From: Ignavibacteriota bacterium
Lineage (GTDB): Bacteria > Bacteroidota > Ignavibacteria > UBA10030 > UBA6906
Assembly: GCA_963843525.1 (NCBI GenBank)
Contig: CAWJKM010000003.1
Coordinates: 477,033 to 541,032, forward strand
Direction: 5' to 3'
Length of the DNA: 64,000 nt
In this document: in pieces, positions 4,584 to 52,898 of the stretch
How positions within the stretch are numbered: the first letter of the stretch is position 1
How the letters are laid out: each line of letters starts with the position of its first letter
Program-made: the position numbers and the translations under genes
Notes under the pieces: model-generated
The model's input: only the letters and a program-made list of their open reading frames with translations
Databases searched by the model: none
Told to the model about the DNA's origin: nothing

Positions 4584-5822
4584 ATGAGCCAGACACCACT
4601 GCCTCCCTGCCGTTCGTGCGGGAGTACAAATCTGCAACTGATTATCTCCTTCGGGAAAACACCGCTGGCGGATGCGCTTGTATGGGAGAAAGACCTCAGT
4701 AAACCGGAGATATTTGCCCAGCTCGACCTGGCGTTCTGTCCCGATTGCGCACTGGTGCAGATCACCGAATCTGTCGATCCCGAAATCCTCTTCTGCCGCG
4801 ACTATCCGTATTTCTCCTCGGTCTCCACTTCACTGCTCCGCCACTTCCGCGACAGTGCTCTGGATATCATCGAGCGGCGCCGGCTCAACTCTTCCAGCCT
4901 CGTGATCGAAGCGGCGAGTAACGACGGATACATGCTCAAGAATTTTGCGGAACGCGGGATCCCGGTGCTCGGTATTGACCCCGCCGATGGGCCCGCGAAA
5001 CTGGCGGTGGAAGCAGGGATCCCAACCCTCAACACCTTTTTCACCGAACAGCTTGCGAAGGACTTGAAACAAAAAGAAGGAAAGGCGGCAGATGTCTTCC
5101 TGGCAAACAACGTCCTCGCCCATGTTCCCGACTTGAACGGGTTCGTGAAAGGCATACGGGAACTGCTGAAGCCAACCGGGGTGGCGGTGATTGAGGCCCC
5201 GTACCTTGTGGACTTGATCAACCACTGCGAATTTGACACGATCTACCATCAACATCTCTGTTACTTCTCCGTAACGGCTCTTGACCGTTTGTTCCGACGC
5301 CATGGTCTGTTTTTGAATGATATCAAACAGACGGGTATCCATGGCGGCTCTCTCCGCTTGTTTGTTGAGCCAGTGGAAAACGTTGGCACAACCGTCAAGA
5401 ACCTGCTCAAGGAGGAAAGTACACTCGGAGTGGATACCCTGACCTATTACAAGGGGTTTGCGCACCGGGTGCAGGAAATCAAAAATGCGCTTCAAAAGAT
5501 GTTGCGAGAGCTGAAGTCGCAGGGAAAGAGCATTGTGGGGTACGGTGCTGCTGCAAAGGCAGCAACGATGCTGGCGTTTGTCGGCATCGACCGGACGCTT
5601 CTGGACTACGTCGCAGATCTCAACAAGTTTAAGCATGGCCGGTACATGGGGGGCAATCACCTCCTCATTGTCCCTCCGTCCCGCATAGGAGAAGACAAAC
5701 CCGACTATGTCTTGATACTGGCCTGGAATTTCGCCGACGAAATTATGAAGCAACTTCAGGTCTATCGAAATGCAGGGGGGAAATTCATCATACCGATCCC
5801 CGATCCTGTCATCCGGGAATAA
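4584..5822 (+). CDS. Class I SAM-dependent sugar C-methyltransferase-like protein with N-terminal zinc ribbon (TylCIII/TcaB9-like architecture)
   Basis: N-terminal CxxC…CxxC ribbon (CRSCGS…CPDCAL), a central SAM-binding region (…[13 protein letters not shown]…) and a C-methyltransferase-like C-terminal domain. Start chosen at the ATG at 4584 with an AAGGAAG RBS; the ORF track opens at 4512. Confidence 0.7.
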
Positions 5823-32876: not shown

Positions 32877-34313
32877 ATGTCCGAAGGCGCTCGGATCAGG
32901 AAGAATTCTTTCTTTGCACTCTCCTCGCAACTTATTCGTTTGCTGACGAATTTTCTCCTTTTCGTAGGGATTGCACGGTACTACGGTGAGGAGGCGTTCG
33001 GGCAATTTACGACTGCACACACGTTGTCGGCAGTGTTCCTCCTGTTTGCCGATTTCGGGTTCGATATGCTCCTCCCGACGGAGATATCTCGAAACCGGCA
33101 CGCCGCCGCCGCCATGGCCCGGAAGTACTTTTCATTCAAGATTCTCTTTGCGCTGCTCGCTACAGTCGGTATGATGGCCCTGCCGCTGGCGCAGGCAATG
33201 TCGCCATCGACAAGAACCCTCGTTGAGATTTTTTCATTCTATGTTCTTCTCTCTTCTCTCAACAACTTCTTTTTCGCACTCTTTAAAGGGTTCGAGGAGT
33301 TTCAGCATGAAACGCGTATCAGCTTGGCAGTCAATGTTGTCCTTCTCACACTTCTGGTCGTGCTGGGCATTGTTCACGCCCCGCTGTACGTCATTGCGCT
33401 GGCTTTTGTCGGCACACGCTTGATTGGCATCGTCTCCTGCTTCTCTATTGCGAAACGTCTTCTCGGTGGCTTTTCGTGGCGGTTCAGCACCGAAGGCTGG
33501 GGAGAAGTGTGGAGGCATGTCGTTGTATTCGGGCTGCAGTTCGTGTTCGGAAACCTTTTCTTTCAGCTTGATACCATCCTGCTGGCGTTCTTACGCGGTG
33601 ATCGTGACGTGGGGGTCTATCAAGCTGTCTTTAAACTCGTGATTTTGACCCTGGTGATACCAGACATTCTGGTCAATACGATGGCGCCGGTCCTTTCCCG
33701 TCTTCATTCCCAGGATCGAGAGACATGGAATCGTGTCGGACGACTGCTGAATAAAACGCTCTCACTCCTTGCCCTGCCGATCGCTCTCGTGCTGTTTATC
33801 TTTCCTGATCAGCTCGTCAATTTGATCTACGGTCCGACAGCATTTCGCCAATCGATCCCAATTCTGCGGATCTTCGCCTGCACGATCCTCATTCGCTTCG
33901 AGGTGGAAGCGTACGCTCTGACGCTGACCACGTCGCATCGACAGGCGTCACGGCTCATGGTCGTCATCATTGGTACCTTGACAAATATCGCTCTGAACGT
34001 GTTCGCAATACCAGCGTACGGTCCGATTGGAGCCGCATTCGTCTCCCTCTTCACCAATCTGCTGGTGGGGATTGGCTACGTCGTGACCTCTAAGCAATCT
34101 GTTCTTGAATGGACCTTCAATCCCCGGATTCTTGTCGTCTCTGGATTTGGATTGTGCGCTGCTGCGGGGCTTTGGCAAGTGCGGAACATCTCGATGTTCT
34201 ATACCGTTCCCGTGCTGGTTGCGTTCTATGGCGGTCTTCTGTATTTCGTCGGATTCACTCGCGATGAATGGTCACTTTTCCTCACTGGCAAACGTCGCTC
34301 TTCCCTCGTGTGA
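32877..34313 (+). CDS. Wzx-type flippase (polysaccharide biosynthesis protein, MOP superfamily)
   Basis: …ALSSQLIRLLTNFLLFVGIARYYG…FGQF… is the classic Wzx N-terminus, with about 12 TM helices. Internal ATG at 32877 chosen directly after the upstream stop. Confidence 0.7.
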   Translation: MSEGARIRKNSFFALSSQLIRLLTNFLLFVGIARYYGEEAFGQFTTAHTLSAVFLLFADFGFDMLLPTEISRNRHAAAAMARKYFSFKILFALLATVGMMALPLAQAMSPSTRTLVEIFSFYVLLSSLNNFFFALFKGFEEFQHETRISLAVNVVLLTLLVVLGIVHAPLYVIALAFVGTRLIGIVSCFSIAKRLLGGFSWRFSTEGWGEVWRHVVVFGLQFVFGNLFFQLDTILLAFLRGDRDVGVYQAVFKLVILTLVIPDILVNTMAPVLSRLHSQDRETWNRVGRLLNKTLSLLALPIALVLFIFPDQLVNLIYGPTAFRQSIPILRIFACTILIRFEVEAYALTLTTSHRQASRLMVVIIGTLTNIALNVFAIPAYGPIGAAFVSLFTNLLVGIGYVVTSKQSVLEWTFNPRILVVSGFGLCAAAGLWQVRNISMFYTVPVLVAFYGGLLYFVGFTRDEWSLFLTGKRRSSLV

Positions 34314-41275: not shown

Positions 41276-42670
41276 TTGGACAAGCGCATACAATTCGTCA
41301 CCTGTCTATTCGTTGATTTTTTGTCGATTAACCTTGCGGGGTCATTGTACTTCTATCTGCGCACCCAGACAGGTTGGTTGACGGTGGTCGGAACGCCAGA
41401 CTTTGTTGCCCCGATGGTCGTGCTTTATGTCTACTGGTCGGCGATTTTTGCCTTCACAGGACTCTATCAGCCTCTCTATGCAGGGTCGCGGATCGACGAA
41501 CTGGCAAAGGTGTTCAAGGCCACTGCAGTCGGGTGCCTTGTCCTGTTTTTTCTGATCTATGTTGACGATGCGTCCTCGTCAAGCGGAGCCCCGAAGGCAA
41601 GGTTTCTTATGGCGGTTTACTGGATTCTACTCCTCACGTTTGCAGGGACCGGACGGGCGGTTGTGAGGAGTGTCCACCGCAGACTGCTGATTAAAGGAAT
41701 CGGTGTTCACCGAACATTGATAATCGGCAGCATGACGAAGGCAAGATCACTGTACGACATGGTCAGGCGATTTCCGGCACTCGGGTTCAATGTCGTCGGA
41801 TTTGTGGGGTTGTCCCGGCGAAAGAATGTCCCCTATCGAGATGTTCCTGTCGTCGGGGTGGTTGAAGAACTGCCTGCGATTCTTGAAAAGGAGAGGGTGA
41901 AAGAAGTCCTCGTGGCCCTCGACAGTACCGACCACGATCGACTCCTGGAAATCCTCTCGCTCTGCAACGGGAATGACGTCAGCCTGAAAATCATGCCTGA
42001 CATGTATGACGTGATCAGCGGACAGGCAAGAACCAACCAGATCTACGGGTTCCCGCTCATTGCGATCTCGCCACAGCTGATGAAGCCGTGGGAGGAGGCG
42101 GTGAAGCGTGGCCTCGATGTGATCGTTGCACTCATTATTCTGGTCCTGGGATTCCCGTTCTGGATCCTGATAGGTGTCGCCATCCGCCTGGAATCTCCCG
42201 GGCCGGCTCTCTATCGCCAGGAACGGGTAGGCAAAGACGGCGTTCACTTCAACATGATCAAGTTCCGCTCGATGCTCAACGATGCCGAACGGCATGGTCC
42301 CCGGTGGGCAAAGAAAAAGGATCCGAGGGTCACGCTGGTGGGCAGGCTTCTGCGCCAGCTGCACCTCGATGAGATACCACAGGTCTTGAATGTCCTCAAA
42401 GGTGAAATGACGCTGATTGGGCCGCGGCCGGAACGACCGGTCTTCGTCGAGAAACTCACGAAAGAGATCCCGCTCTACTCCCGGCGCTTGAAGGTGCGCC
42501 CCGGCGTCACCGGCTGGGCCCAGGTGAAGCACCGGTACGATGAAACCATCGATGACGTGCGACTGAAGGTGCAATATGATCTGTTCTATATAGAAAACAT
42601 GTCTCTGATGATGGATCTCAAGATCATCCTCTATACCGTTTTTCACGTGATCCTTGGCAAAGGGCGGTAG
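41276..42670 (+). CDS. Exopolysaccharide biosynthesis polyprenyl glycosylphosphotransferase (second initiating PGT, WbaP/EpsB-like)
   Basis: TM region and CoA-binding-like domain (…FNVVGFVG…), then …FRSMLNDAE… and …DEIPQVLNVLKGEMTLIGPRPERP…GVTGWAQV…. Apparent TTG start; no in-frame ATG near the N-terminus. Confidence 0.85.
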   Translation: MDKRIQFVTCLFVDFLSINLAGSLYFYLRTQTGWLTVVGTPDFVAPMVVLYVYWSAIFAFTGLYQPLYAGSRIDELAKVFKATAVGCLVLFFLIYVDDASSSSGAPKARFLMAVYWILLLTFAGTGRAVVRSVHRRLLIKGIGVHRTLIIGSMTKARSLYDMVRRFPALGFNVVGFVGLSRRKNVPYRDVPVVGVVEELPAILEKERVKEVLVALDSTDHDRLLEILSLCNGNDVSLKIMPDMYDVISGQARTNQIYGFPLIAISPQLMKPWEEAVKRGLDVIVALIILVLGFPFWILIGVAIRLESPGPALYRQERVGKDGVHFNMIKFRSMLNDAERHGPRWAKKKDPRVTLVGRLLRQLHLDEIPQVLNVLKGEMTLIGPRPERPVFVEKLTKEIPLYSRRLKVRPGVTGWAQVKHRYDETIDDVRLKVQYDLFYIENMSLMMDLKIILYTVFHVILGKGR

Positions 42671-43837: not shown

Positions 43838-44575
43838 ATGGACTCTTCCAGACCGGCGGACACGACGATTCTCGTCGTGGTCCCGACGTATAACGAAGCA
43901 GATAACATCGCGCGGCTCATACCGGTATTGCTGGGACTTGCCGGCGAGATCGAAATTCTCGTCGTCGACGACAATTCCCCCGACGGCACCGCGGGGGTGG
44001 TGAAGGAGATGGCAAAGAGGGAATCCCGGATCCATCTCCTCGAGCGACCGGGGAAAATGGGACTCGGGAGTGCCTACGTCCTCGGATTCAAATACGCTCT
44101 GGAACACCACTATGGCTTTGTTATACAAATGGACGCCGATTTTTCGCACGATCCACACGAAATTCCGACTTTCTGTGCCGCGGCGAAAAACGCAGACCTG
44201 GTGCTCGGTTCCCGGTATGCGAACGGTGTCCGGGTTTTGAACTGGCCGATCCACCGGCTTCTGCTCAGCTATTTCGCGAATGTGTATTCAAGGATTATGA
44301 CCGGGCTCCCCATCACGGATGCAACAGGGGGTTTTAAGTGCTTCCGTCGATCCGTGTTGGAGTCCATTAACCTGAACACCATCCGCTCGAACGGCTATGC
44401 GTTTCAAATCGAAATGACGTTCAAGGCGTGGAAGAAGGGATTCCACGTCGAAGAGATCCCGATTACTTTTCTCGACCGTCGCCATGGATCGTCAAAGATG
44501 TCGAAGCAGATTGTGTATGAAGCGTTGTTCATGCTTTTCCGGCTGAGGGTGAGAGCGTGGATGAATCGGCTTTAG
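43838..44575 (+). CDS. GT2 polyprenyl-phosphate glycosyltransferase (Dpm1/ArnC-like)
   Basis: …LVVVPTYNEADNIARL…EILVVDDNSPDGT…QMDADFSHDP…. The 245-aa soluble GT2 is typical of dolichyl/undecaprenyl-phosphate sugar synthases. Confidence 0.75.
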   Translation: MDSSRPADTTILVVVPTYNEADNIARLIPVLLGLAGEIEILVVDDNSPDGTAGVVKEMAKRESRIHLLERPGKMGLGSAYVLGFKYALEHHYGFVIQMDADFSHDPHEIPTFCAAAKNADLVLGSRYANGVRVLNWPIHRLLLSYFANVYSRIMTGLPITDATGGFKCFRRSVLESINLNTIRSNGYAFQIEMTFKAWKKGFHVEEIPITFLDRRHGSSKMSKQIVYEALFMLFRLRVRAWMNRL

Positions 44576-45099
44576 CCAGTTGACAGTAAACAGTTGACAG
44601 TAGACAGTATATCGCAAGTAAGTGAGCACGGACATTCGATTGTGAATACAAATCTCCAGATAGAAAATGATCAAGTTACCCGCCAAACCCGTGATTACCG
44701 TGATTTACTTGTATGGCAGAAGGGGATTCACCTGGTGAAGGACATCTATGCCCTCACGAGGGGGTTTCCAAAGGATGAACTATTTGGACTTTCGAGTCAA
44801 CTACGTCGGGCTGCAGTCTCTGTGCCGTCCAACATTGCTGAAGGTCAGCAGAGAAGATCGGTGAATGATTTCAAAAGATACCTCTCCATCGCCCTTGGCT
44901 CCCTGGCCGAAATCGACACGCAACTGGTTGTCGCGGGTGAGCTCGGATACACATCCGGTGAAGGCCTCCGGCAACTCCAATCAGACATTTGCGATATGCG
45001 AAAGATGCTCTATGGCCTCATTGCGAGTCTTGAGAACCAGTCCTCCGTCAAGCATTAGGCTATCGCCACTGTCTACTGTCAACTGTCGTCTGTAAACTG
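44576..45099 (+). mobile_element. Four-helix-bundle gene cassette bracketed by ~33-bp imperfect inverted repeats built from CAGTNNA heptamers (IVS-like insertion)
   Basis: Left arm 44576-44610 is CCAGTTGACAGTAAACAGTTGACAGTAGACAGTAT. Right arm 45066-45099 is its near-perfect reverse complement. The arms abut the stop of the upstream gene and the start of the downstream gene. Confidence 0.45.
44594..45058 (+). CDS. Four helix bundle protein (23S rRNA intervening-sequence protein family)
   Basis: …YRDLLVWQKGIHLVKDIYALTRGFPKDELFGLSSQLRRAAVSVPSNIAEGQ…SLAEIDTQL… is the family signature. The true start may be an internal GTG at 44642. Confidence 0.7.
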   Translation: MTVDSISQVSEHGHSIVNTNLQIENDQVTRQTRDYRDLLVWQKGIHLVKDIYALTRGFPKDELFGLSSQLRRAAVSVPSNIAEGQQRRSVNDFKRYLSIALGSLAEIDTQLVVAGELGYTSGEGLRQLQSDICDMRKMLYGLIASLENQSSVKH

Positions 45100-45101
45100 A
45101 T

Positions 45102-47096
45102 ATGGATCTCACCGTCATCATCGTCAACTACAACGTTCGCCAGTTCCTGGAGAACGCGCTGACCTCCATCGGCCGGGCGCTCGAAGGGATCGAGGGTGAA
45201 GTCATTGTCGTGGATAATGCCTCACGCGATGAAAGCGTCGCGATGGTACGGAAGTCCTTCCCGTGGGTCCGGGTGATCGCCAATGCCAGCAATGACGGGT
45301 TCGCACGGGCCAATAACTCTGCACTCAGGGAGGCGAAGGGCCGGTACGTCCTTCTCATCAACCCCGACGCGATCGTGCAGGAGGATACGTTCAAGGTCAT
45401 GCTCCGGTTCCTCGATGCACATCCTGACGTCGGCCTCGCCGGGTGCAAGGTTCTCAATCCGGATGGGACGTTTCAGCTTCCCTGCAGGAGGAGTTTTCCG
45501 ACACCGTGGGTCGCGTTCACCAAAATGTTCGGCCTCTCTTCACTCTTCCCGCAGTCCCGGATCTTCGGGAAGTACAACCTTACGTACCTCAATCCGGACG
45601 AGAGCTACCCTGTCGACGCCGTGAGTGGATCGTTCATGATGGTGCGCGCCGAAGTGTACAGAAAGATCGGCGGATTGGACGAGTCGTTCTTCATGTACGG
45701 CGAGGATCTCGATTGGTGTTTCCGCGTTCGGGAGGCGGGGTTTGCGGTGTACTATGTCCACGAGACGTCCATCATCCACTTCAAGGGTGAGAGCACGCGG
45801 CGGAGCGAGATCAATGAGGTCCGCCTCTTCTACCAGGCGATGGAGCTCTTTGTTGCGAAGCACTTCCGGCGATCGACGCTGCAACGGTTTATCCTTTCCC
45901 TCGGGATCTCCATTCGCGAATTCTTCGCGTGGAGCCGACGCCTCGTAACTCCGACGTTGCTGATTGCGGTGGACTTTTCCCTCGTCGATGCCGCATTGTT
46001 CCTGAGTGCGTTCGCCTATTTCCAGGACCCGTACAAATTCATCAATGGCGCGAGTCCGGTTGTCTGGTTTGCCCCGGCGATCATCGTCGTCCTGGGACTG
46101 GCAGGATCGGGCTCGTATCACTCCAACCGGCACTCTCCCTCCCGTGCCGCGATCGGTGTCATCGGCGGCTATGTCCTGATCTCTGCCGCCGTGTTCTTTT
46201 TCAAGAACCTCGCATACAGCAGGGCCGTGGTGGCGATCTCCGGCCTGGTGAGCCTGGTGATGATCCCCGTGTGGAGGGTGGTCCTCTACAAGATTATCGC
46301 GGGAAGATCGCACGCGGGCCAGCGGAGGACGCTGTTCGGCGGCCGGACTCTCATCGTGGGCGTGGGAGAATCGGCCCGGGAGTTGCTCCGGCGTCTCCGA
46401 AGCCGCGTGGACGGGGCATACGACGTCGTGGGGTTTGTGGATACCAGCGGTCGCCATGTGGGAGAAGTCCTCGACGGCGTGGAAATCGTGGGCAACCTGG
46501 AAAATGTGGGGAAGGTCGTGGACCAGCTGCGCGTCAGCGATGTCATTTTTTCCACGGACGGACTTTCCTACGGTGAAGTGCTCTCGGTGATCACCAGGAG
46601 CAATAATAGCGCGATCAATTTCCGCCTTGTCCCGAATAGCCTCGAAGCGATCATCGGGAAAACACGGATCGATCAGCTCGATACGATCCCGCTTGTGGAC
46701 ATTGAGTACAACCTGCATTTGCCCTCTCATCGATTCCTGAAGCGCATCGTCGACCTGATTGTTTCGTCCATTATTCTCCTCCTTTTATATCTGCCTCTCC
46801 GACTGCTGAAGGGATGGTCGAAACCGGACGGCCTGGTGCGCGTGATCCCCCTGGTCTTCATCGGGAAACGCAGCCTTGTCGGTCTGCCGTTTTCGGCTGA
46901 CGGCGCGGTTGCGGCTGCTCTTTCCCGGCGCTGCGGCGGGGCGGATCTCGGCCCGATCGGGCTCACCGGGCTGATTCAGGTGAATAGCCACCCGGGAATG
47001 ACGGAGGAAGAGATGGAACGCTACGCTCTTTTTTACGCGAAGAACCACTCCTTCGGGCTGGATGTTGAAATACTGATGAAGGCGATAGGTTTTTGA
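45102..47096 (+). CDS. Fusion protein: N-terminal GT2 (WbbL-like) domain, then TM helices, CoA-binding-like domain and a degenerate phosphoglycosyltransferase C-terminal domain
   Basis: N-terminal …LTVIIVNYNVRQFL…VIVVDNASRDES…YGEDLDWCFR…. Then hydrophobic helices and …RTLIVGVGESAREL…YDVVGFVD… (the WbaP central domain). Then …DGLVRVIPLVFIGKRSLVGLPFS…, which aligns to DE(L/I)PQ…[14 protein letters not shown] with the DE dyad and PRP lost. Confidence 0.7.
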   Translation: MDLTVIIVNYNVRQFLENALTSIGRALEGIEGEVIVVDNASRDESVAMVRKSFPWVRVIANASNDGFARANNSALREAKGRYVLLINPDAIVQEDTFKVMLRFLDAHPDVGLAGCKVLNPDGTFQLPCRRSFPTPWVAFTKMFGLSSLFPQSRIFGKYNLTYLNPDESYPVDAVSGSFMMVRAEVYRKIGGLDESFFMYGEDLDWCFRVREAGFAVYYVHETSIIHFKGESTRRSEINEVRLFYQAMELFVAKHFRRSTLQRFILSLGISIREFFAWSRRLVTPTLLIAVDFSLVDAALFLSAFAYFQDPYKFINGASPVVWFAPAIIVVLGLAGSGSYHSNRHSPSRAAIGVIGGYVLISAAVFFFKNLAYSRAVVAISGLVSLVMIPVWRVVLYKIIAGRSHAGQRRTLFGGRTLIVGVGESARELLRRLRSRVDGAYDVVGFVDTSGRHVGEVLDGVEIVGNLENVGKVVDQLRVSDVIFSTDGLSYGEVLSVITRSNNSAINFRLVPNSLEAIIGKTRIDQLDTIPLVDIEYNLHLPSHRFLKRIVDLIVSSIILLLLYLPLRLLKGWSKPDGLVRVIPLVFIGKRSLVGLPFSADGAVAAALSRRCGGADLGPIGLTGLIQVNSHPGMTEEEMERYALFYAKNHSFGLDVEILMKAIGF

Positions 47097-47118: not shown

Positions 47119-47345
47119 ATGAGTAAGAAGTAAGAAGAAGGAAGAAGGAAGAAAACAGTGGACAGTGGACAGTGGACAGTGGACAGTGGACAGTGAACAG
47201 TGAACAGTGAACAGTGAACAGTGAATAATGAACAATATACTGTAATTACTTTTTTTAACTGTCATCTGTCTACTGTATTGTCATGACTATCTACCGTTCC
47301 CTTCTTTCTTCCTACATCTTACTTCGTACTTCTTACTCTTCGTAG
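47119..47345. repeat. Large imperfect palindrome with tandem heptamer repeats (CAGTGGA)x5 (CAGTGAA)x4 and an AT-rich centre; flanked by an inverted GAAGAAG-rich arm pair
   Basis: Left arm GAGTAAGAAGTAAGAAGAAGGAAGAAGGAAGAAAA plus heptamer tandem. Centre aatatactgtaattactttttttaac. Right arm ctgtcatctgtctactgtattgtcatgac…ttcttcctacatcttacttcgtacttcttactcttcg, roughly the reverse complement. It lies between the fusion gene and accA. Confidence 0.6.
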
Positions 47346-48750: not shown

Positions 48751-49664
48751 CCGTGGCCAATGGCGATGAACCATACGGGAGGGCTGAACGGGAGGTTCCG
48801 TTCGACGGCCGGATTCTCGGGGCGATAGAGAATGCCTTGAGGGAAGACATCGGGATGGGGGATATCACCGGTGACTCCACGCTGGATGCAGACGCGCGGA
48901 CGGGCGGTGAATTCCTCGCAAAGGCTGATGGGGTCATTGCCGGCATCGAAGTGGCGGGAGCGGTCTTTCACCTCACCGATGAAGAGGTGGTGTACCGGCC
49001 TGTGGTGAGCGACGGGACGGGCGTGAAGTCCGGGACGGTGATTGCACTGGTTGAAGGGAACGCGCGAGGAATCCTGAGGGCGGAGCGGGTCGCGCTCAAT
49101 TTTCTGCAACGAATGGGCGGGATCGCGACGATGACGCGGACATACGTCGATGCGGTGCGCGGAACGAAAGCGAAAATCACGGATACGCGAAAGACCGCCC
49201 CCGGGCTCCGCGCGATCGACAAACTCGCCGTGCGCATCGGAGGCGGTGTCAATCATCGCTATGGACTCGATGATATGGTCCTGATCAAGGATAATCACAT
49301 CGTCGCCGCGGGCGGGATCACCGCGGCCGTCCATCGCTGCCAGGATTACCTTCGCGAGCACAACATCAAGGTCGGCATTGAAGTGGAAACAACCTCACTG
49401 AAAGAGGTCAGAGAGTCGCTGTCGCTCAAAGGGCTGCAGCGCATCATGCTTGACAATTTTTCTGTTGCCGCAATGCGTGAGGCGGTCCTTCTGATTGGCG
49501 GACGCGTGGAGGTGGAAGCATCGGGCGGTATTACGCTGGAGAGCGTGAAGGAGGTCGCGATGACCGGGGTGGATTTCATTTCCGTCGGCGCCATCACCCA
49601 CTCGGTTCATGCTCTTGACATCTCTCTGGAGTTCACGTCGGGAACCCATGCCCCCCATGCGTGA
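48747..49664 (+). CDS. nadC: Nicotinate-nucleotide diphosphorylase (carboxylating), quinolinate phosphoribosyltransferase
   Basis: …GDITGDST…ERVALNFLQRMGGIATMT…TRKTAPGLRAIDKLAVRIGGGVNHRYGLDDMVLIKDNHI…; the N-terminus may be slightly over-extended. Confidence 0.85.
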   Translation: MTVANGDEPYGRAEREVPFDGRILGAIENALREDIGMGDITGDSTLDADARTGGEFLAKADGVIAGIEVAGAVFHLTDEEVVYRPVVSDGTGVKSGTVIALVEGNARGILRAERVALNFLQRMGGIATMTRTYVDAVRGTKAKITDTRKTAPGLRAIDKLAVRIGGGVNHRYGLDDMVLIKDNHIVAAGGITAAVHRCQDYLREHNIKVGIEVETTSLKEVRESLSLKGLQRIMLDNFSVAAMREAVLLIGGRVEVEASGGITLESVKEVAMTGVDFISVGAITHSVHALDISLEFTSGTHAPHA

Positions 49665-51108
49665 TCAGATACGAAGTCTGGGGGCCGACACTGCGATCTA
49701 CGGCATCAGCACCATCGTCGGCAGGTTCCTCAATTTCCTCCTTGTCTTCTTCTACACCAACGTCCTCCAGCCCGGTGATTACGGCATCGTGGCCTACGTC
49801 TATTCGCTGGTGGCATTCCTCACGATCCTCTACGGATTCGGGATGGAATCGGCGTACTTCAAGTATGCCTCCACAAAGGAACACGGGACGGACCGTGAAA
49901 ACTTCTCGACGCCGCTCCTGGCCCTGCTGGTGAGCTCGGTCGCGCTCTCTTCCCTCATCACCCTGTTTGCGTCGCCCATCGGCGGACTTGTGGCCGTCCC
50001 CGGCGAGCATGTTTCGATTATTTCGTACGCGGCATGGATCCTGTGTCTTGACACCGTGGCGGCCGTCCCGTTCGCGGCTCTCCGTCTCGAACGGCGTCCG
50101 CGCCTTTTCGCGCTCATCAAGACGGTCAACATCGTTGTGAACGTCGGAGCCAATCTTGTCCTCCTCCTGATCTATCATGCAGGCGTGGAAGGAATTTTCC
50201 TCAGCGGATTGATAGCGTCCGGGGCGACTCTTGCACTCCTGCTGCCTGTTATCATCCGTCGGTTTGAACTCCGGTTTACGCCACCCTTATTCAGGACCAT
50301 GCTGCGTTTCGGCCTTCCCTATGTTCCTGCAGGCCTGGCGAGCATGATGATCCAGGTGGTCGACCGACCGATCCTCAGGGCTATGACCGACGATGCCACG
50401 GTAGGCATCTATCAGGCGAACTACCGCCTCGGCATCTTCATGATGCTTGTGGTTTCGATGTACGACTATGCGTGGAGACCGTTTTTTCTCTCCCATGCAA
50501 ATGATCCGGACGCGAAGGCACTCTTTTCGCGTATTCTGACCTATTTCGTCCTTGTCGGCTCATCCATAACGGTCATCCTCTCGCTGTTCATGGATGATTT
50601 CGTGAAGATTCGGGTCTTCGGGCACAGCCTCATCAACCAGGAGTATTGGCCGGGACTGCCAATTGTCCCCGTGGTCCTTCTGGCATATCTCTTCCTTGGG
50701 GTTTACAATAATCTCATAGCCGGCATCTATATTAAGGAGAAGTCCCGATATCTCCCGGCCATTACCTTTGCGGGGGCAGGAGTGAATGTCATTGTCAATA
50801 TTCTTCTCATCCCGCCACTGGGAATGATGGGGGCTGCGATTGCCACCCTGGCAGCCTACGCAGCTATGGCGCTGACATTGTATATTGTAGTGCGGAGATT
50901 CTACCCGGTTCCGTACGAATGGGGCCGGATTGGGGTGATCCTCTCTTGTGGATGCGTCTGCTACATACTGTACAGGCTTGTTCCCCCGGTCTTTACGCCG
51001 ATCCTCTGGAAAACTCTTCTGGTGGCGCTTTTCGGTGGCTCGCTCATTCTTTTTAGGGCGGTTCGTCTCAGTGGATTGAGATCGTTCGGGAAGGCAGGTG
51101 AGATGTAA
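49648..51108 (+). CDS. Polysaccharide biosynthesis protein, Wzx/MOP-family flippase-like (third in window)
   Basis: …GADTAIYGISTIVGRFLNFLLVFFYTNVLQPGDYGIV… and 12-14 TM helices. Start uncertain (49609, 49648 or 49657); it overlaps the end of nadC. The last codons are embedded in the first linker-like unit of the downstream repeat array. Confidence 0.6.
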   Translation: MPPMRDQIRSLGADTAIYGISTIVGRFLNFLLVFFYTNVLQPGDYGIVAYVYSLVAFLTILYGFGMESAYFKYASTKEHGTDRENFSTPLLALLVSSVALSSLITLFASPIGGLVAVPGEHVSIISYAAWILCLDTVAAVPFAALRLERRPRLFALIKTVNIVVNVGANLVLLLIYHAGVEGIFLSGLIASGATLALLLPVIIRRFELRFTPPLFRTMLRFGLPYVPAGLASMMIQVVDRPILRAMTDDATVGIYQANYRLGIFMMLVVSMYDYAWRPFFLSHANDPDAKALFSRILTYFVLVGSSITVILSLFMDDFVKIRVFGHSLINQEYWPGLPIVPVVLLAYLFLGVYNNLIAGIYIKEKSRYLPAITFAGAGVNVIVNILLIPPLGMMGAAIATLAAYAAMALTLYIVVRRFYPVPYEWGRIGVILSCGCVCYILYRLVPPVFTPILWKTLLVALFGGSLILFRAVRLSGLRSFGKAGEM

Positions 51109-51113
51109 GGAAC

Positions 51114-51813
51114 TGTAGGACGGGACGCCAGTCCCGTCCCTGAGAGGGTCGGGTCAGCGACCCGACCTACAGATCGTGGGAGATGTGAGGCATTGTAGGA
51201 CGGGACGCCAGTCCCGTCCCTGAGAGGGTCGGGTCAGCGACCCGACCTACAGATCGTAGGAGATGTGAGCCACTGTAGGACGGGACGCCAGTCCCGTCCC
51301 TGAAAGGGTCGGGTGAGCGACCCGACCTACAGATCGTAGGAGATGGAGGCACTGTAGGACGGGACGCCAGTCCCGTCCCTGAGAGGGTCGGGTCAGCGAC
51401 CCGACCTACAGATCGTAGGAGATGTGAGCCATTGTAGGACGGGACGCCAGTCCCGTCCCTGAGAGGGTCAGGTCAGCGACCCGACCTACAGATCGTAGGA
51501 GATGTGAGCCACTGTAGGACGGGACGCCAGTCCCGTCGCTGAGAGGGTCGGGTCAGCGACCCGACCTACAGATCGTGGGAGATGTGAGGCATTGTAGGAC
51601 GGGACGCCAGTCCCGTCCCTGAGAGGGTCGGGTCAGCGACCCGACCTACAGATCGTAGGAGATGTGAGCCACTGTAGGACGGGACGCCAGTCCCGTCCCT
51701 GAGAGGTCGGGTCAGCGACCCGACCTACAGATCGTAGGAGATGTGAGCCATGTAGGACGGGACGCCAGTCCCGTCGCTGAGAGGGTCGGGTCAGCGACCC
51801 GACCTACAGATCG
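51114..51813. repeat. Tandem array of ~8.8 copies of an 80-bp noncoding repeat, each unit carrying two 9-bp-stem hairpins nested in a 7-bp outer stem
   Basis: Unit is TGTAGGACGGGACgccaGTCCCGTCCctgagaGGGTCGGGTCagcGACCCGACCTACAGatcgtaggagatgtgagccac. Unit starts at 51114, 51194, 51274, 51353, 51433, 51513, 51593, 51673 and 51751, a period of 78-80 bp. All frames carry stops. Only a few point variants occur between units. Confidence 0.9.
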
Positions 51814-51866: not shown

Positions 51867-52898
51867 ATGTCATCGAAGGAGCAACAAAGCAACAAGGCGC
51901 TATCGTCCGACCAGATTCTGCTTGGCGGCCAGGCGGTGATAGAAGGAGTGATGATGCGGGGGCCGCAGTCGATTGCCACGGCCGTCCGACGGCGAGACGG
52001 TGTCATCGTGGTTCACAAGGAGGCGTTCATTCCTCTCACGCGGCGGTATCGTATCTGGCGATTCCCTATCCTCCGCGGGGTGGCTGGATTTTTTGAAATG
52101 ACCGTGCTCGGAATCCGGATGCTCAATTTCTCGGCAGACGTAGCGATACATGACGGGGAACCGGAGGGGGAGGAGGCGAAGGTCGGAGAGAAACACGGAA
52201 AGGGGGCGGGGGGGTGGAGCCTTGCCCTGGCCGTTCTGGTGTCGCTTACTGTCGCCGTAGGGTTATTCTTTGTAGTCCCCATTCTGCTTGCGACCACGTT
52301 GTTCAGTGTCTCCCAGGATCCCCTCGTGTTCAATTTCGCCGCGGGCTCGATACGCCTCTTAATCTTCCTCAGCTATCTTGCACTGATAGCCAGAATCCCC
52401 GACGTACGACGTCTCTTCATGTATCACGGGGCAGAACATATGACGGTGTTCGCCTTCGAGCGTGAAAAGACTGTCACGGCGGAAGCGGCGTCGCGCCAAT
52501 CGCGGTTTCATCCGCGGTGTGGAACGAGCTTCCTGCTCATAGTCGTGTTTGCATCAATCGTCCTCTTCTCTTTGGTGGATGCCGTGATCCTGTACTCCAC
52601 GGGCAGTATCACCCTTCCGCTGAGACTCCTCTGGCACCTGCTCCTCCTGCCGCTCGTGGCAGGGAGTTCCTATGAGGTGATCCGCTTCTCCGCGAGGCAT
52701 GCAGAGACTTTCCTCGGCCGTCTTATTATGAAGCCCGGACTTCTGCTTCAACGGCTGACAACCAGAGTTCCAACAGAAGACCAGCTCGAGGTGGCGGTGG
52801 CGGCACTGCAAGCCGCCCTTGAACAAACACAGGATCTTCCTGTCGCGCAGGCAGAAGCCGGGAGCGGTGAGAGCTTGCGGGTTGCGGCGCTGGGTTAA
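51867..52898 (+). CDS. DUF1385 domain-containing protein (YqhQ-like)
   Basis: …LGGQAVIEGVMMRGP… is the hallmark of DUF1385, with several internal hydrophobic segments. It sits immediately upstream of prfA, a commonly conserved arrangement. Confidence 0.7.
   Translation: MSSKEQQSNKALSSDQILLGGQAVIEGVMMRGPQSIATAVRRRDGVIVVHKEAFIPLTRRYRIWRFPILRGVAGFFEMTVLGIRMLNFSADVAIHDGEPEGEEAKVGEKHGKGAGGWSLALAVLVSLTVAVGLFFVVPILLATTLFSVSQDPLVFNFAAGSIRLLIFLSYLALIARIPDVRRLFMYHGAEHMTVFAFEREKTVTAEAASRQSRFHPRCGTSFLLIVVFASIVLFSLVDAVILYSTGSITLPLRLLWHLLLLPLVAGSSYEVIRFSARHAETFLGRLIMKPGLLLQRLTTRVPTEDQLEVAVAALQAALEQTQDLPVAQAEAGSGESLRVAALG

Follow-up and report, generated by a model that had tools for sequence, protein, structure and literature searches.

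The DNA analysed here is a stretch of 64,000 nucleotides (nt) from an Ignavibacteriota bacterium (positions 477,033 to 541,032 of contig CAWJKM010000003.1, assembly GCA_963843525.1; referred to as the window), in which bases 44577–45099 form a cassette consisting of a gene of the PF05635/TIGR02436 family between two 32-nt arms built of CAGTNNA heptamers. This cassette is an element of the intervening sequence (IVS) type, situated in an mRNA operon instead of in rRNA. Homologous loci revealed that a complementary heptamer bracket is the rule for the PF05635 family across phyla, and orthologous operons showed that, in an Ignavibacteriota-like lineage, the cassette long ago entered the 6–12-nt spacer of a polysaccharide operon and has been inherited vertically since. 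With regard to its mode of action, we consider it probable, if only narrowly so, that the arms pair within the operon RNA to form a stem from which the insert is looped out and which RNase III most likely cuts.

The cassette and its heptamer arms

The sequence-only reading of this locus had placed a gene of the IVS protein family between the stop codon of a Dpm1-like GT2 gene (43838–44575; named dolichol-phosphate or polyprenol-monophosphate mannose synthase, depending on the source) and the ATG of a downstream fusion gene, and had described inverted repeats of CAGTNNA heptamers on both sides of it. Both claims were borne out, the former by the coordinates (Table 1) and profile matches of the gene, and the latter by the 32-nt arms themselves, by Tandem Repeats Finder, which reported a period of 7/14 in both arms, and by counts of the pattern CAGTNNACAGTNNACAGT. 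When at most 2 mismatches were allowed, this pattern was found 17 times in the window versus 0.17 times expected from shuffles (maximum 2), and its matches were confined to the cassette and to bases 47149–47275. Period-7 tracts likewise occurred at two junctions of the window only, bar one trivial 2-copy match at 33245. The arms, which lie 459 nt apart, complement each other at 28 of 32 positions (88%), so that their proposed complementarity stood, with the term near-perfect being slightly generous in view of the 4 mismatches.

The open reading frame (ORF) of the cassette matched PF05635 with 127.8 bits (2.4e-37; cut-off 33.8), TIGR02436 with 123.2 bits (cut-off 24) and NF008911 with 140.8 bits (cut-off 137), and its product matched the crystallised Xanthomonas protein XCC0516 (PDB 2GSC) at 3.6e-27. 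Public gene calls start at the GTG at 44642 to yield 138 amino acids (aa); a longer, TTG-started ORF (44594) opens within the left arm, and the family profile begins at residue 33–36 of this longer version. The core R-x3-S-x3-N-x2-E of the published family motif G-x2-R-x3-S-x3-N-x2-E (PMC3936711) is present as RRAAVSVPSNIAEG, in alignment with XCC0516, and the leading G-x2 is unmatched, with an S in its place (SQLRRAAV...). As the deposited crystals of the homologues 2GSC and 2RLD contain 5 chains each, and XCC0516 was described as a homopentameric toroid (PMC4990558), the window protein is predicted by homology to adopt a pentameric four-helix-bundle fold. The family is large, with 9,365 cluster representatives at 50% identity (E <= 1e-10), and none of the papers found assigns a function to its proteins, which were still labelled as of unknown function in a 2016 study of Coxiella (PMC4990558).

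Rfam revealed no family at gathering scores and no rRNA in the window and, even at E <= 1, nothing over the cassette or over the ORF-less hairpin described below. A scan for sigma-70-type promoter and intrinsic-terminator consensus sequences, which leaves Bacteroidota-type promoters uncovered, yielded none in the cassette. PADLOC returned no match for the cassette gene, leaving a defence-system reading unsupported, and profile searches of the cassette protein detected no recombinase, nuclease or transposase domain. The possibility that the arms serve as three-frame stop-codon arrays was dropped, with just 19 of 46 upstream heptamers containing a stop triplet.

A complementary heptamer bracket across phyla

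A scan of one genome per species yielded 577 confirmed homologues, the best 80 loci of which were kept; these loci are not phylogenetically independent, many homologue loci are metagenome-assembled, and neighbouring genes were called by simple ORF rules. The 80 loci span Ignavibacteriota, Chloroflexota, Acidobacteriota, Verrucomicrobiota, Planctomycetota, Desulfobacterota, Chlorobium, a purple sulfur bacterium, Synergistota, Nitrospirota and a Saccharibacterium. When inverted repeats were sought between the 200-nt flanks on either side of the gene, the best one scored far above shuffles and had a heptamer-periodic arm in 63 of 80 evaluable copies, and in 48 of 79 copies the heptamer consensuses of the two flanks were identical or one base apart when compared as reverse complements. 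Period-7 arrays were found in 56% of flanks versus 5.1% of windows drawn at random from these loci, corresponding to an enrichment of ~11-fold (79 copies), and periods of 5, 6, 8 and 9 were each found in <=1% of flanks. The median arm measured 32 nt on both sides, as in the window, or ~4.6 heptamers, with arrays of 17 to >100 nt among the homologues.

Upon alignment in phase, the upstream heptamers read A-G-T-(G/T)-(G/A)-N-(C/G) on the coding strand, with G2 present in 89 of 89 heptamers, A1 in 78 and T3 in 77, and carried 6.14 bits of information versus 3.34 +/- 0.15 bits for shuffles that were optimised alike. The (C)AG(T) core was conserved in upstream heptamers across phyla, and the arms had a fixed polarity, with a G-rich upstream arm (39% G, 15% C) mirrored by the downstream arm. 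Moreover, duplexes formed by the two arms of the same locus had a mean energy of –55.8 kcal/mol, versus –25.6 kcal/mol for pairs of arms from different loci (p = 1e-14).

Among the loci in which both neighbours could be called, 45 genes between co-directional neighbours were co-oriented versus 3 in antisense, and 17 more were located between convergent or divergent genes. In the co-oriented loci with a detected arm, the left arm mostly started within a few nt of the upstream stop codon, as tightly as in the window; the gap between the right arm and the next start codon was wider in co-oriented loci, mostly ~3–60 nt. Outside the cassettes, loci L001–L080 contained 38 further period-7 arrays, many of which were of the AGT type, some with a complementary partner nearby and some solitary.

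Insertion and age of the cassette

Orthologous operons were obtained as contigs bearing close homologues of the upstream GT2. Two syntenic but more distant operons (GT2 68–69% identical) lack the cassette, and their spacer from the GT2 stop to the fusion-gene ATG measures just 12 nt (L086) and 6 nt (a contig from JGI), confirming the proposal that the gene had been inserted at this junction. No target-site duplication was visible in the one empty-site comparison. Three nearer relatives (L083, L084 and L085; GT2 80–89% identical) carry a PF05635 gene at the identical junction, and the closest relatives are metagenome-assembled genomes labelled Ignavibacteriota. Because the proteins of these three relatives outrank all other homologues of the window protein in the species-level genome scan (67–68% identity, with the next best at 59%) and are encoded at the same junction, we read them as orthologues.

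Synonymous sites were saturated among the orthologous operons (pS 0.65–0.86), and the cassette protein displayed a pN of 0.22–0.29 versus a pS of 0.66–0.86, indicating that it is under purifying selection, albeit with an evolutionary rate 2 to 3.6 times that of its neighbour. The suggestion of a mobile cassette did not survive this comparison as far as recent mobility at this locus is concerned, since the same junction is occupied in all three nearer relatives and their synonymous sites are saturated.

The arm heptamers themselves differ between orthologues (CAGTTGA/CAGTAGA in the window, CAGTTGT/CAGTAGC in L083, CAGCGGA on the left and TCCGCTG on the right in L084, and CAGGGAA and TTCCCTG in L085), yet the arms are complementary all the same. 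Relatives in which the gene stands without its repeats, an arrangement that the sequence-only reading had named as speaking against its proposal, were not encountered, the repeats being kept in changed yet complementary form. Since neutral DNA at such divergence would lose all complementarity, that of the arms has been kept by selection, and the retention of repeats with changed but complementary heptamers argues for a function rather than for a scar of transposition.

Two of the orthologues show sequence peculiarities. Frameshifts are located at 4879–4895 of L083 and 4905–4925 of L085, just past the conserved DYRDL start of the family domain, with the remainder of the ORFs being intact; one of them stems from a long-read assembly and may be a sequencing error. 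In L083, the closest relative, the fusion gene as called runs through the right heptamer arm (5241–5300), which implies either a mis-called start or an arm-encoded N-terminus.

An ORF-less hairpin and distant members of the family

Further copies of the stem, for which the sequence-only reading had advised a search of the genome, were sought throughout the window, and one ORF-less stem of the same heptamer class was indeed found ~2 kb downstream. This hairpin (47121–47338) fills the 260 nt that separate the fusion gene from accA, and its fold reached –96.7 kcal/mol (z = –6.3). The cassette-bearing relatives also have ORF-less hairpins at this second junction, composed of heptamers of their own (AGTGACC/AGTGGTC in L084, GTAGGAC in L085), and the empty-site relatives have only 11 nt (L086) and 12 nt (JGI contig) there. 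The ORF-less hairpin might be viewed as the cassette device minus its gene.

A true IVS turned out to have the same architecture, as the ORF of Azospirillum lipoferum lies within the 23S rRNA gene and is flanked by heptamer arms (Table 1). No 23S rRNA similarity was detected in the 97 other fetched loci, making the rRNA location an exception among these homologues. A protein search of plasmids yielded 32 records, mostly cyanobacterial, and in those whose flanks were read the cyanobacterial cassettes had heptamer arms. Relatives of XCC0516 were located in Xanthomonas (L096/L097 1425–1872; L098 1485–1932), where the gene lies between accB and accC with CGGGAAT-type heptamers on its 5′ side and CCCATTC-type heptamers on its 3′ side, the latter ending exactly at the ATG of accC.

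These XCC0516-type arms correspond to the published GGGAATC repeat, which is highly enriched in Xanthomonas, has been studied as a G-quadruplex former and occurs as 70–75 convergent inverted pairs per genome (PMC4692102). The same study reported GGGGA(C/T)T heptamers in Nostoc as abundant and unexplained, as were the TAACTGA heptamers of Beggiatoaceae, cyanobacteria and Bacteroidetes (PMC4679880), and heptamers near the DNA-repair genes recF/recO of Nostoc led to the postulation of a protein partner (bioRxiv 10.1101/2022.06.06.494920). Neither PMC4692102 nor PMC4679880 mentions an S23, four-helix-bundle or PF05635 gene (0 occurrences), G-quadruplexes or translational effects being discussed instead. 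Among open-access papers, with database family descriptions outside the scope of the search, no link between heptamer arrays and this gene family was found outside rRNA.

Two cyanobacterial cases showed additional features. In Anabaena, the annotated N-terminus of cas4 takes in the outer right arm (CTGTCAC x4), so that the start of cas4 has probably been called too far upstream. Plasmids alpha (L088) and gamma (L089) of Nostoc sp. PCC 7120 encode an identical four-helix-bundle protein (WP_010994075.1), and an ISL3-family transposase gene ends just upstream of the cassette gene on L089, with the same upstream sequence, but no annotated gene, on L088. As both have the downstream CTTCTGC/CCTCTGC arm and miss the matching upstream arm, this cassette may be truncated and carried by an insertion sequence.

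Table 1. Positions of the cassette, the ORF-less hairpin and distant family members. Coordinates refer to the window unless a locus is named.
Feature	Position	Strand	Context and remarks
Stop codon TAG of the Dpm1-like GT2 gene (43838–44575)	44573..44575	+	1 nt separates the TAG from the left arm
Left (5′) arm, CAGTTGACAGTAAACAGTTGACAGTAGACAGT	44577..44608	+	4.6 tandem heptamers, CAGTTGA-CAGTAAA-CAGTTGA-CAGTAGA-CAGT; G-rich, AGT-core type
Spacer from left arm to cassette-gene start	44609..44641	+	Without sigma-70-type promoter consensus
Cassette gene, 138-aa four-helix-bundle protein	44642..45058	+	PF05635/TIGR02436, XCC0516- and Avd-like; GTG start, TAG stop
Right (3′) arm, ACTGTCTACTGTCAACTGTCGTCTGTAAACTG	45068..45099	+	ACTGTCT-ACTGTCA-ACTGTCG-TCTGTAA-ACTG; complements the left arm
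ATG of the downstream fusion gene (45102–47096)	45102..45104	+	2 nt past the right arm
Outer left arm of the ORF-less hairpin	47121..47153	+	AGTAAGA/AGAAGGA heptamers; spacer between fusion gene and accA
Inner left array of the ORF-less hairpin	47154..47236	+	11.6 copies of ACAGTGG/ACAGTGA; CAGTNNA class, like the cassette arms
Inner right arm of the ORF-less hairpin	47255..47279	+	TTAACTGTCATCTGTCTACTGTATT / ACTGTCATCTGTCTACTGT
Outer right arm of the ORF-less hairpin	47286..47338	+	…CCCTTCTTTCTTCCTACATCTTACTTCGTACTTCTTACTC
Nostoc edaphicum plasmid pNe_5	L095 1430–1960		Between nrdB and nrdA, antisense to both; upstream AGTAGGG/AGTGGGG x8, downstream TCCCTAC x5
Anabaena sp. 90 plasmid pANA02	L091 1380–2060		Between cas6 and cas4; ACAGGTG arrays and a second, inner arm pair (nested), downstream complement
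Nostoc punctiforme			In a tightly spaced operon of hypothetical genes; upstream AGTCAGG, downstream short
Riemerella			Downstream of an iron-sulfur assembly gene; upstream AGGTTTA, downstream complement
Azospirillum lipoferum	L094		Inside a 23S rRNA gene (Rfam LSU, 2529 bits); upstream CAGAGGA/CGGATGA, downstream complement

Proposed stem formation and alternative explanations

In the reading that we favour, the cassette, having no promoter of its own, would be transcribed within the operon RNA, in which the arms would pair into a stem of ~32 bp that loops out the 460-nt insert and sets the GT2 stop and the fusion-gene start side by side again. By homology with the IVSs of 23S rRNA, RNase III would then cut this stem, leading to excision of the cassette RNA and to separation of the upstream and downstream cistrons. 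The IVS of Coxiella has a terminal stem of 28 bp (versus 32 bp in the window cassette), with three tandem GACAGAT heptamers upstream of its ORF, and RNase III cleaves it where the first of these heptamers begins (PMC4990558). If a stem loops the insert out, insertions would be expected to be tolerated both at operon junctions and at the tips of rRNA helices. The arm–arm stem was indeed present in the minimum-energy fold of the element.

A number of observations nevertheless weigh against this reading. The fold of the whole element was just modestly better than those of shuffles (z = –2.4). In a wobble test of 52 loci, G.U-compatible mismatches between arms were not in excess of A.C mismatches (69 versus 67), and sense and antisense stems were equally stable, the sense stem being the more stable one in 15 of 31 cases. 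Without such a sense-strand signature, no selection for sense-RNA pairing can be discerned, and homogenisation of the arms at the DNA level fits as well. Moreover, 2 of the 4 orthologous copies of the gene carry a 1-nt frameshift near the N-terminus, and the co-orientation of the cassettes could reflect the mere need to express a promoter-less gene. Cleavage, like stem formation in vivo, is put forward by homology. Finally, a plain RNase III stem leaves the period of 7 and the conserved (C)AG(T) core unexplained; because RNase III needs neither, both features fit a sequence-reading partner better, and the encoded protein, which alone among possible partners accompanies the arms, is the candidate reader.

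This might in turn indicate that the heptamer arrays are binding sites of the cassette's own pentameric protein, with about five (C)AGU heptamers of single-stranded RNA or DNA per ring, one for each subunit, a possibility that we hold to be rather unlikely. A comparable mode of reading is known from the TRAP ring, which binds spaced GAG/UAG triplets. Such binding would compete with the stem and could thereby control processing, translation of the protein itself or the downstream gene, which is compatible with cutting by RNase III, and ORF-less arrays elsewhere would then be targets in trans. It would suit the (C)AG(T) core that is kept at 7-nt spacing across phyla as the other positions drift even between orthologues, the placement of the G-rich arm always upstream of the gene, and the purifying selection on the protein, the expression of which seems needed in view of the 45 versus 3 co-orientation. 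The median arm of ~4.6 heptamers is moreover matched by the five chains of 2GSC and 2RLD and by the homopentameric toroid of XCC0516 (PMC4990558), although this agreement between 5 subunits and 5 repeats is numerology for now, and array lengths of 17 to >100 nt speak against it. The heptamer arrays also far outnumber the genes, with 183–186 arrays per Xanthomonas genome (PMC4692102), and the Nostoc study already postulated a protein partner for such repeats (bioRxiv 10.1101/2022.06.06.494920). However, the GGGAATC arms of Xanthomonas have no AG(T) core, so that recognition would have to vary by subfamily, and the Coxiella protein is apparently never made (PMC4990558). A broader proposal, to be taken just as tentatively, is that PF05635 proteins are the missing partners of the intergenic heptamer repeats of cyanobacteria, Xanthomonas, Beggiatoaceae, Bacteroidota and many soil phyla. 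Gene and arrays would then constitute a module complete in itself and able to colonise operon junctions as well as rRNA helix tips, with ORF-less arrays as its targets or offspring, like repetitive extragenic palindromic (REP) sequences to their REP-associated tyrosine transposase (RAYT).

The lack of a strand-specific RNA signature in the stems is also what would be expected if the arms were terminal inverted repeats acting at the DNA level in a mobile element, with hairpin or cruciform DNA being handled by a host or trans-acting recombinase and the RNA stem being a by-product. Long inverted ends built of short tandem repeats are indeed found in foldback transposons. Some lineages have the site occupied and others have it empty, the gene shows a patchy distribution across many phyla, with the same AGTGACG heptamer type recurring in Acidobacteriota, Verrucomicrobiota and Planctomycetota, its hosts are as different as cas, nrd and acc operons and rRNA, and nested two-layer arms suggest repeated insertion at one spot. 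Nevertheless, we judge this explanation to be quite improbable. The cassette contains no recombinase or nuclease domain and has no match in PADLOC or to another family, the single empty-site comparison revealed no target-site duplication, and the cassette remained stable at one junction while synonymous sites became saturated. Arm sequences furthermore vary between orthologues, unlike the ends bound by a recombinase, and the 45 versus 3 co-orientation is unexpected for an element that operates purely at the DNA level. The most remote of the explanations, which is already disfavoured, regards the arrays as functionless, slippage-prone microsatellites of intergenic DNA with the gene merely among them. 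Arrays are common elsewhere in the same loci (the 38 further tracts, and 5% of random windows) and vary in copy number, such as the 11.6 copies at 47154–47236. However, they are enriched ~11-fold beside the gene and with a period of 7 alone, their arms complement each other and not the arms of other loci, and their polarity relative to the gene is fixed. They have also been kept at the orthologous junction through saturated synonymous divergence, and period-7 tracts are found at just two junctions of the window, aside from the trivial match at 33245.

Comparison with known systems

The stem that would be cut by RNase III has its counterpart in the 23S rRNA IVSs that contain an S23p/IVP ORF (Coxiella burnetii, Leptospira and Azospirillum), in which the same protein family is encoded in the loop of a long terminal stem. 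Arms of CAG-core heptamers are shared as well, with GACAGAT in the Coxiella IVS (PMC4990558), CAGAGGA in that of Azospirillum and CAGTNNA in the window. The likeness to an IVS that had been pointed out from the sequence was upheld for the protein family and for the arm structure, which is that of the Azospirillum 23S IVS, the host being, as the sequence-only reading had also stated, an mRNA operon and not an rRNA gene. Indeed, the 23S IVSs reside in rRNA and their cleavage by RNase III was shown (PMC4990558), whereas the window cassette resides in a protein-coding operon, is flanked by protein-coding genes and would, by homology, be cleaved likewise. Moreover, the ORF of the Coxiella IVS is decaying and apparently untranslated (PMC4990558), in contrast to the window ORF, which is under purifying selection.

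Avd, the accessory protein of diversity-generating retroelements (DGRs), is a homologous four-helix-bundle pentamer; the homology was noted in PMC10053308, and the L084 orthologue of the window protein also matches PF22296 (bAvd). A bracket of heptamer arms has not been described for Avd genes. A role as DGR accessory was rejected for the window gene, as neither a reverse transcriptase nor a template/variable repeat is located nearby, and the genes called within ~5 kb of the cassette comprise glycosyltransferases, a sugar transferase, an aminotransferase, accA, a thioesterase and QRPTase.

RNase III stems, such as the stalks around 16S and 23S in rRNA operons and the intercistronic sites in the early mRNA of phage T7, direct cutting and separate units from each other. 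They likewise consist of a long stem around a unit or between cistrons but, unlike the cassette, they have no tandem heptamers and no travelling gene, and are not insertions. In REP/RAYT systems (REPtrons), the RAYT is an HUH tyrosine transposase and the REPs are imperfect palindromes. The cassette resembles these systems in having one gene flanked by inverted short repeats that are also scattered through intergenic DNA without a gene, and differs from them in that its protein has no recognisable catalytic domain and its repeats are heptamer arrays instead of imperfect palindromes. The published heptamer repeats of Xanthomonas, Nostoc and Beggiatoaceae are tandem and intergenic, and often form convergent inverted pairs, with GGGAATC bracketing the XCC0516-type gene.

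With respect to features of transposons and miniature inverted-repeat transposable elements, the cassette has no transposase domain and shows no duplication in comparison with the empty site, and the 64 kb searched contained one ORF-less stem of the same heptamer class. An identity as CRISPR array or Cas accessory gene was rejected as well, since the 7-nt units are contiguous, no cas genes are nearby and there was no PADLOC match. CRISPR surveys do list the family as cas-associated, for example between cmr3 and cmr2 (PMC3936711; PMC10910872), without mention of repeats or of an insertion habit. The case of Anabaena, where the cassette sits between cas6 and cas4, suggests that this CRISPR association of the family results from cassettes settling at operon junctions, be it of cas genes or of acc, nrd and glycosyltransferase genes, and not from a function in Cas systems.

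Implications and further features of the window

More interesting than the individual cassette is the wider pattern, consisting of the family-wide heptamer bracket, the habit of residing at operon junctions and the link to the heptamers of Xanthomonas and cyanobacteria. This ties a gene family to heptamer repeats that had been catalogued and left unexplained, so that each can now be used to study the other. Given that XCC0516 was purified and crystallised before, and that GGGAATC repeats flank its gene, both the binding of heptamers by the protein and the cutting of the stem by RNase III are directly testable. In addition, the arms are a source of annotation errors, with the start codons of downstream genes sometimes being called inside them.

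In the downstream host gene (45102–47096), a GT2 domain and a CoA-binding domain are fused to just the last ~45 residues of a bacterial sugar-transferase domain, a remnant that scored 25 bits, which is under the cut-off. The same CoA-binding domain recurs upstream, in a full sugar transferase encoded at 41276–42670.

Further along the window, an 80-nt unit is repeated nine times in tandem at 51100–51813 (copies 95% alike), filling the spacer between the ORFs 49609–51108 and 51867–52898. The sole Rfam similarity there was a sub-threshold match to the Caulobacter small RNA (sRNA) CC3552 family (35 bits versus a cut-off of 50). Each unit contains two GC-rich hairpins, ACGGGAC/GTCCCGT and GTCGGGTC/GACCCGAC, which are closed by CTGTAGG/CCTACAG.

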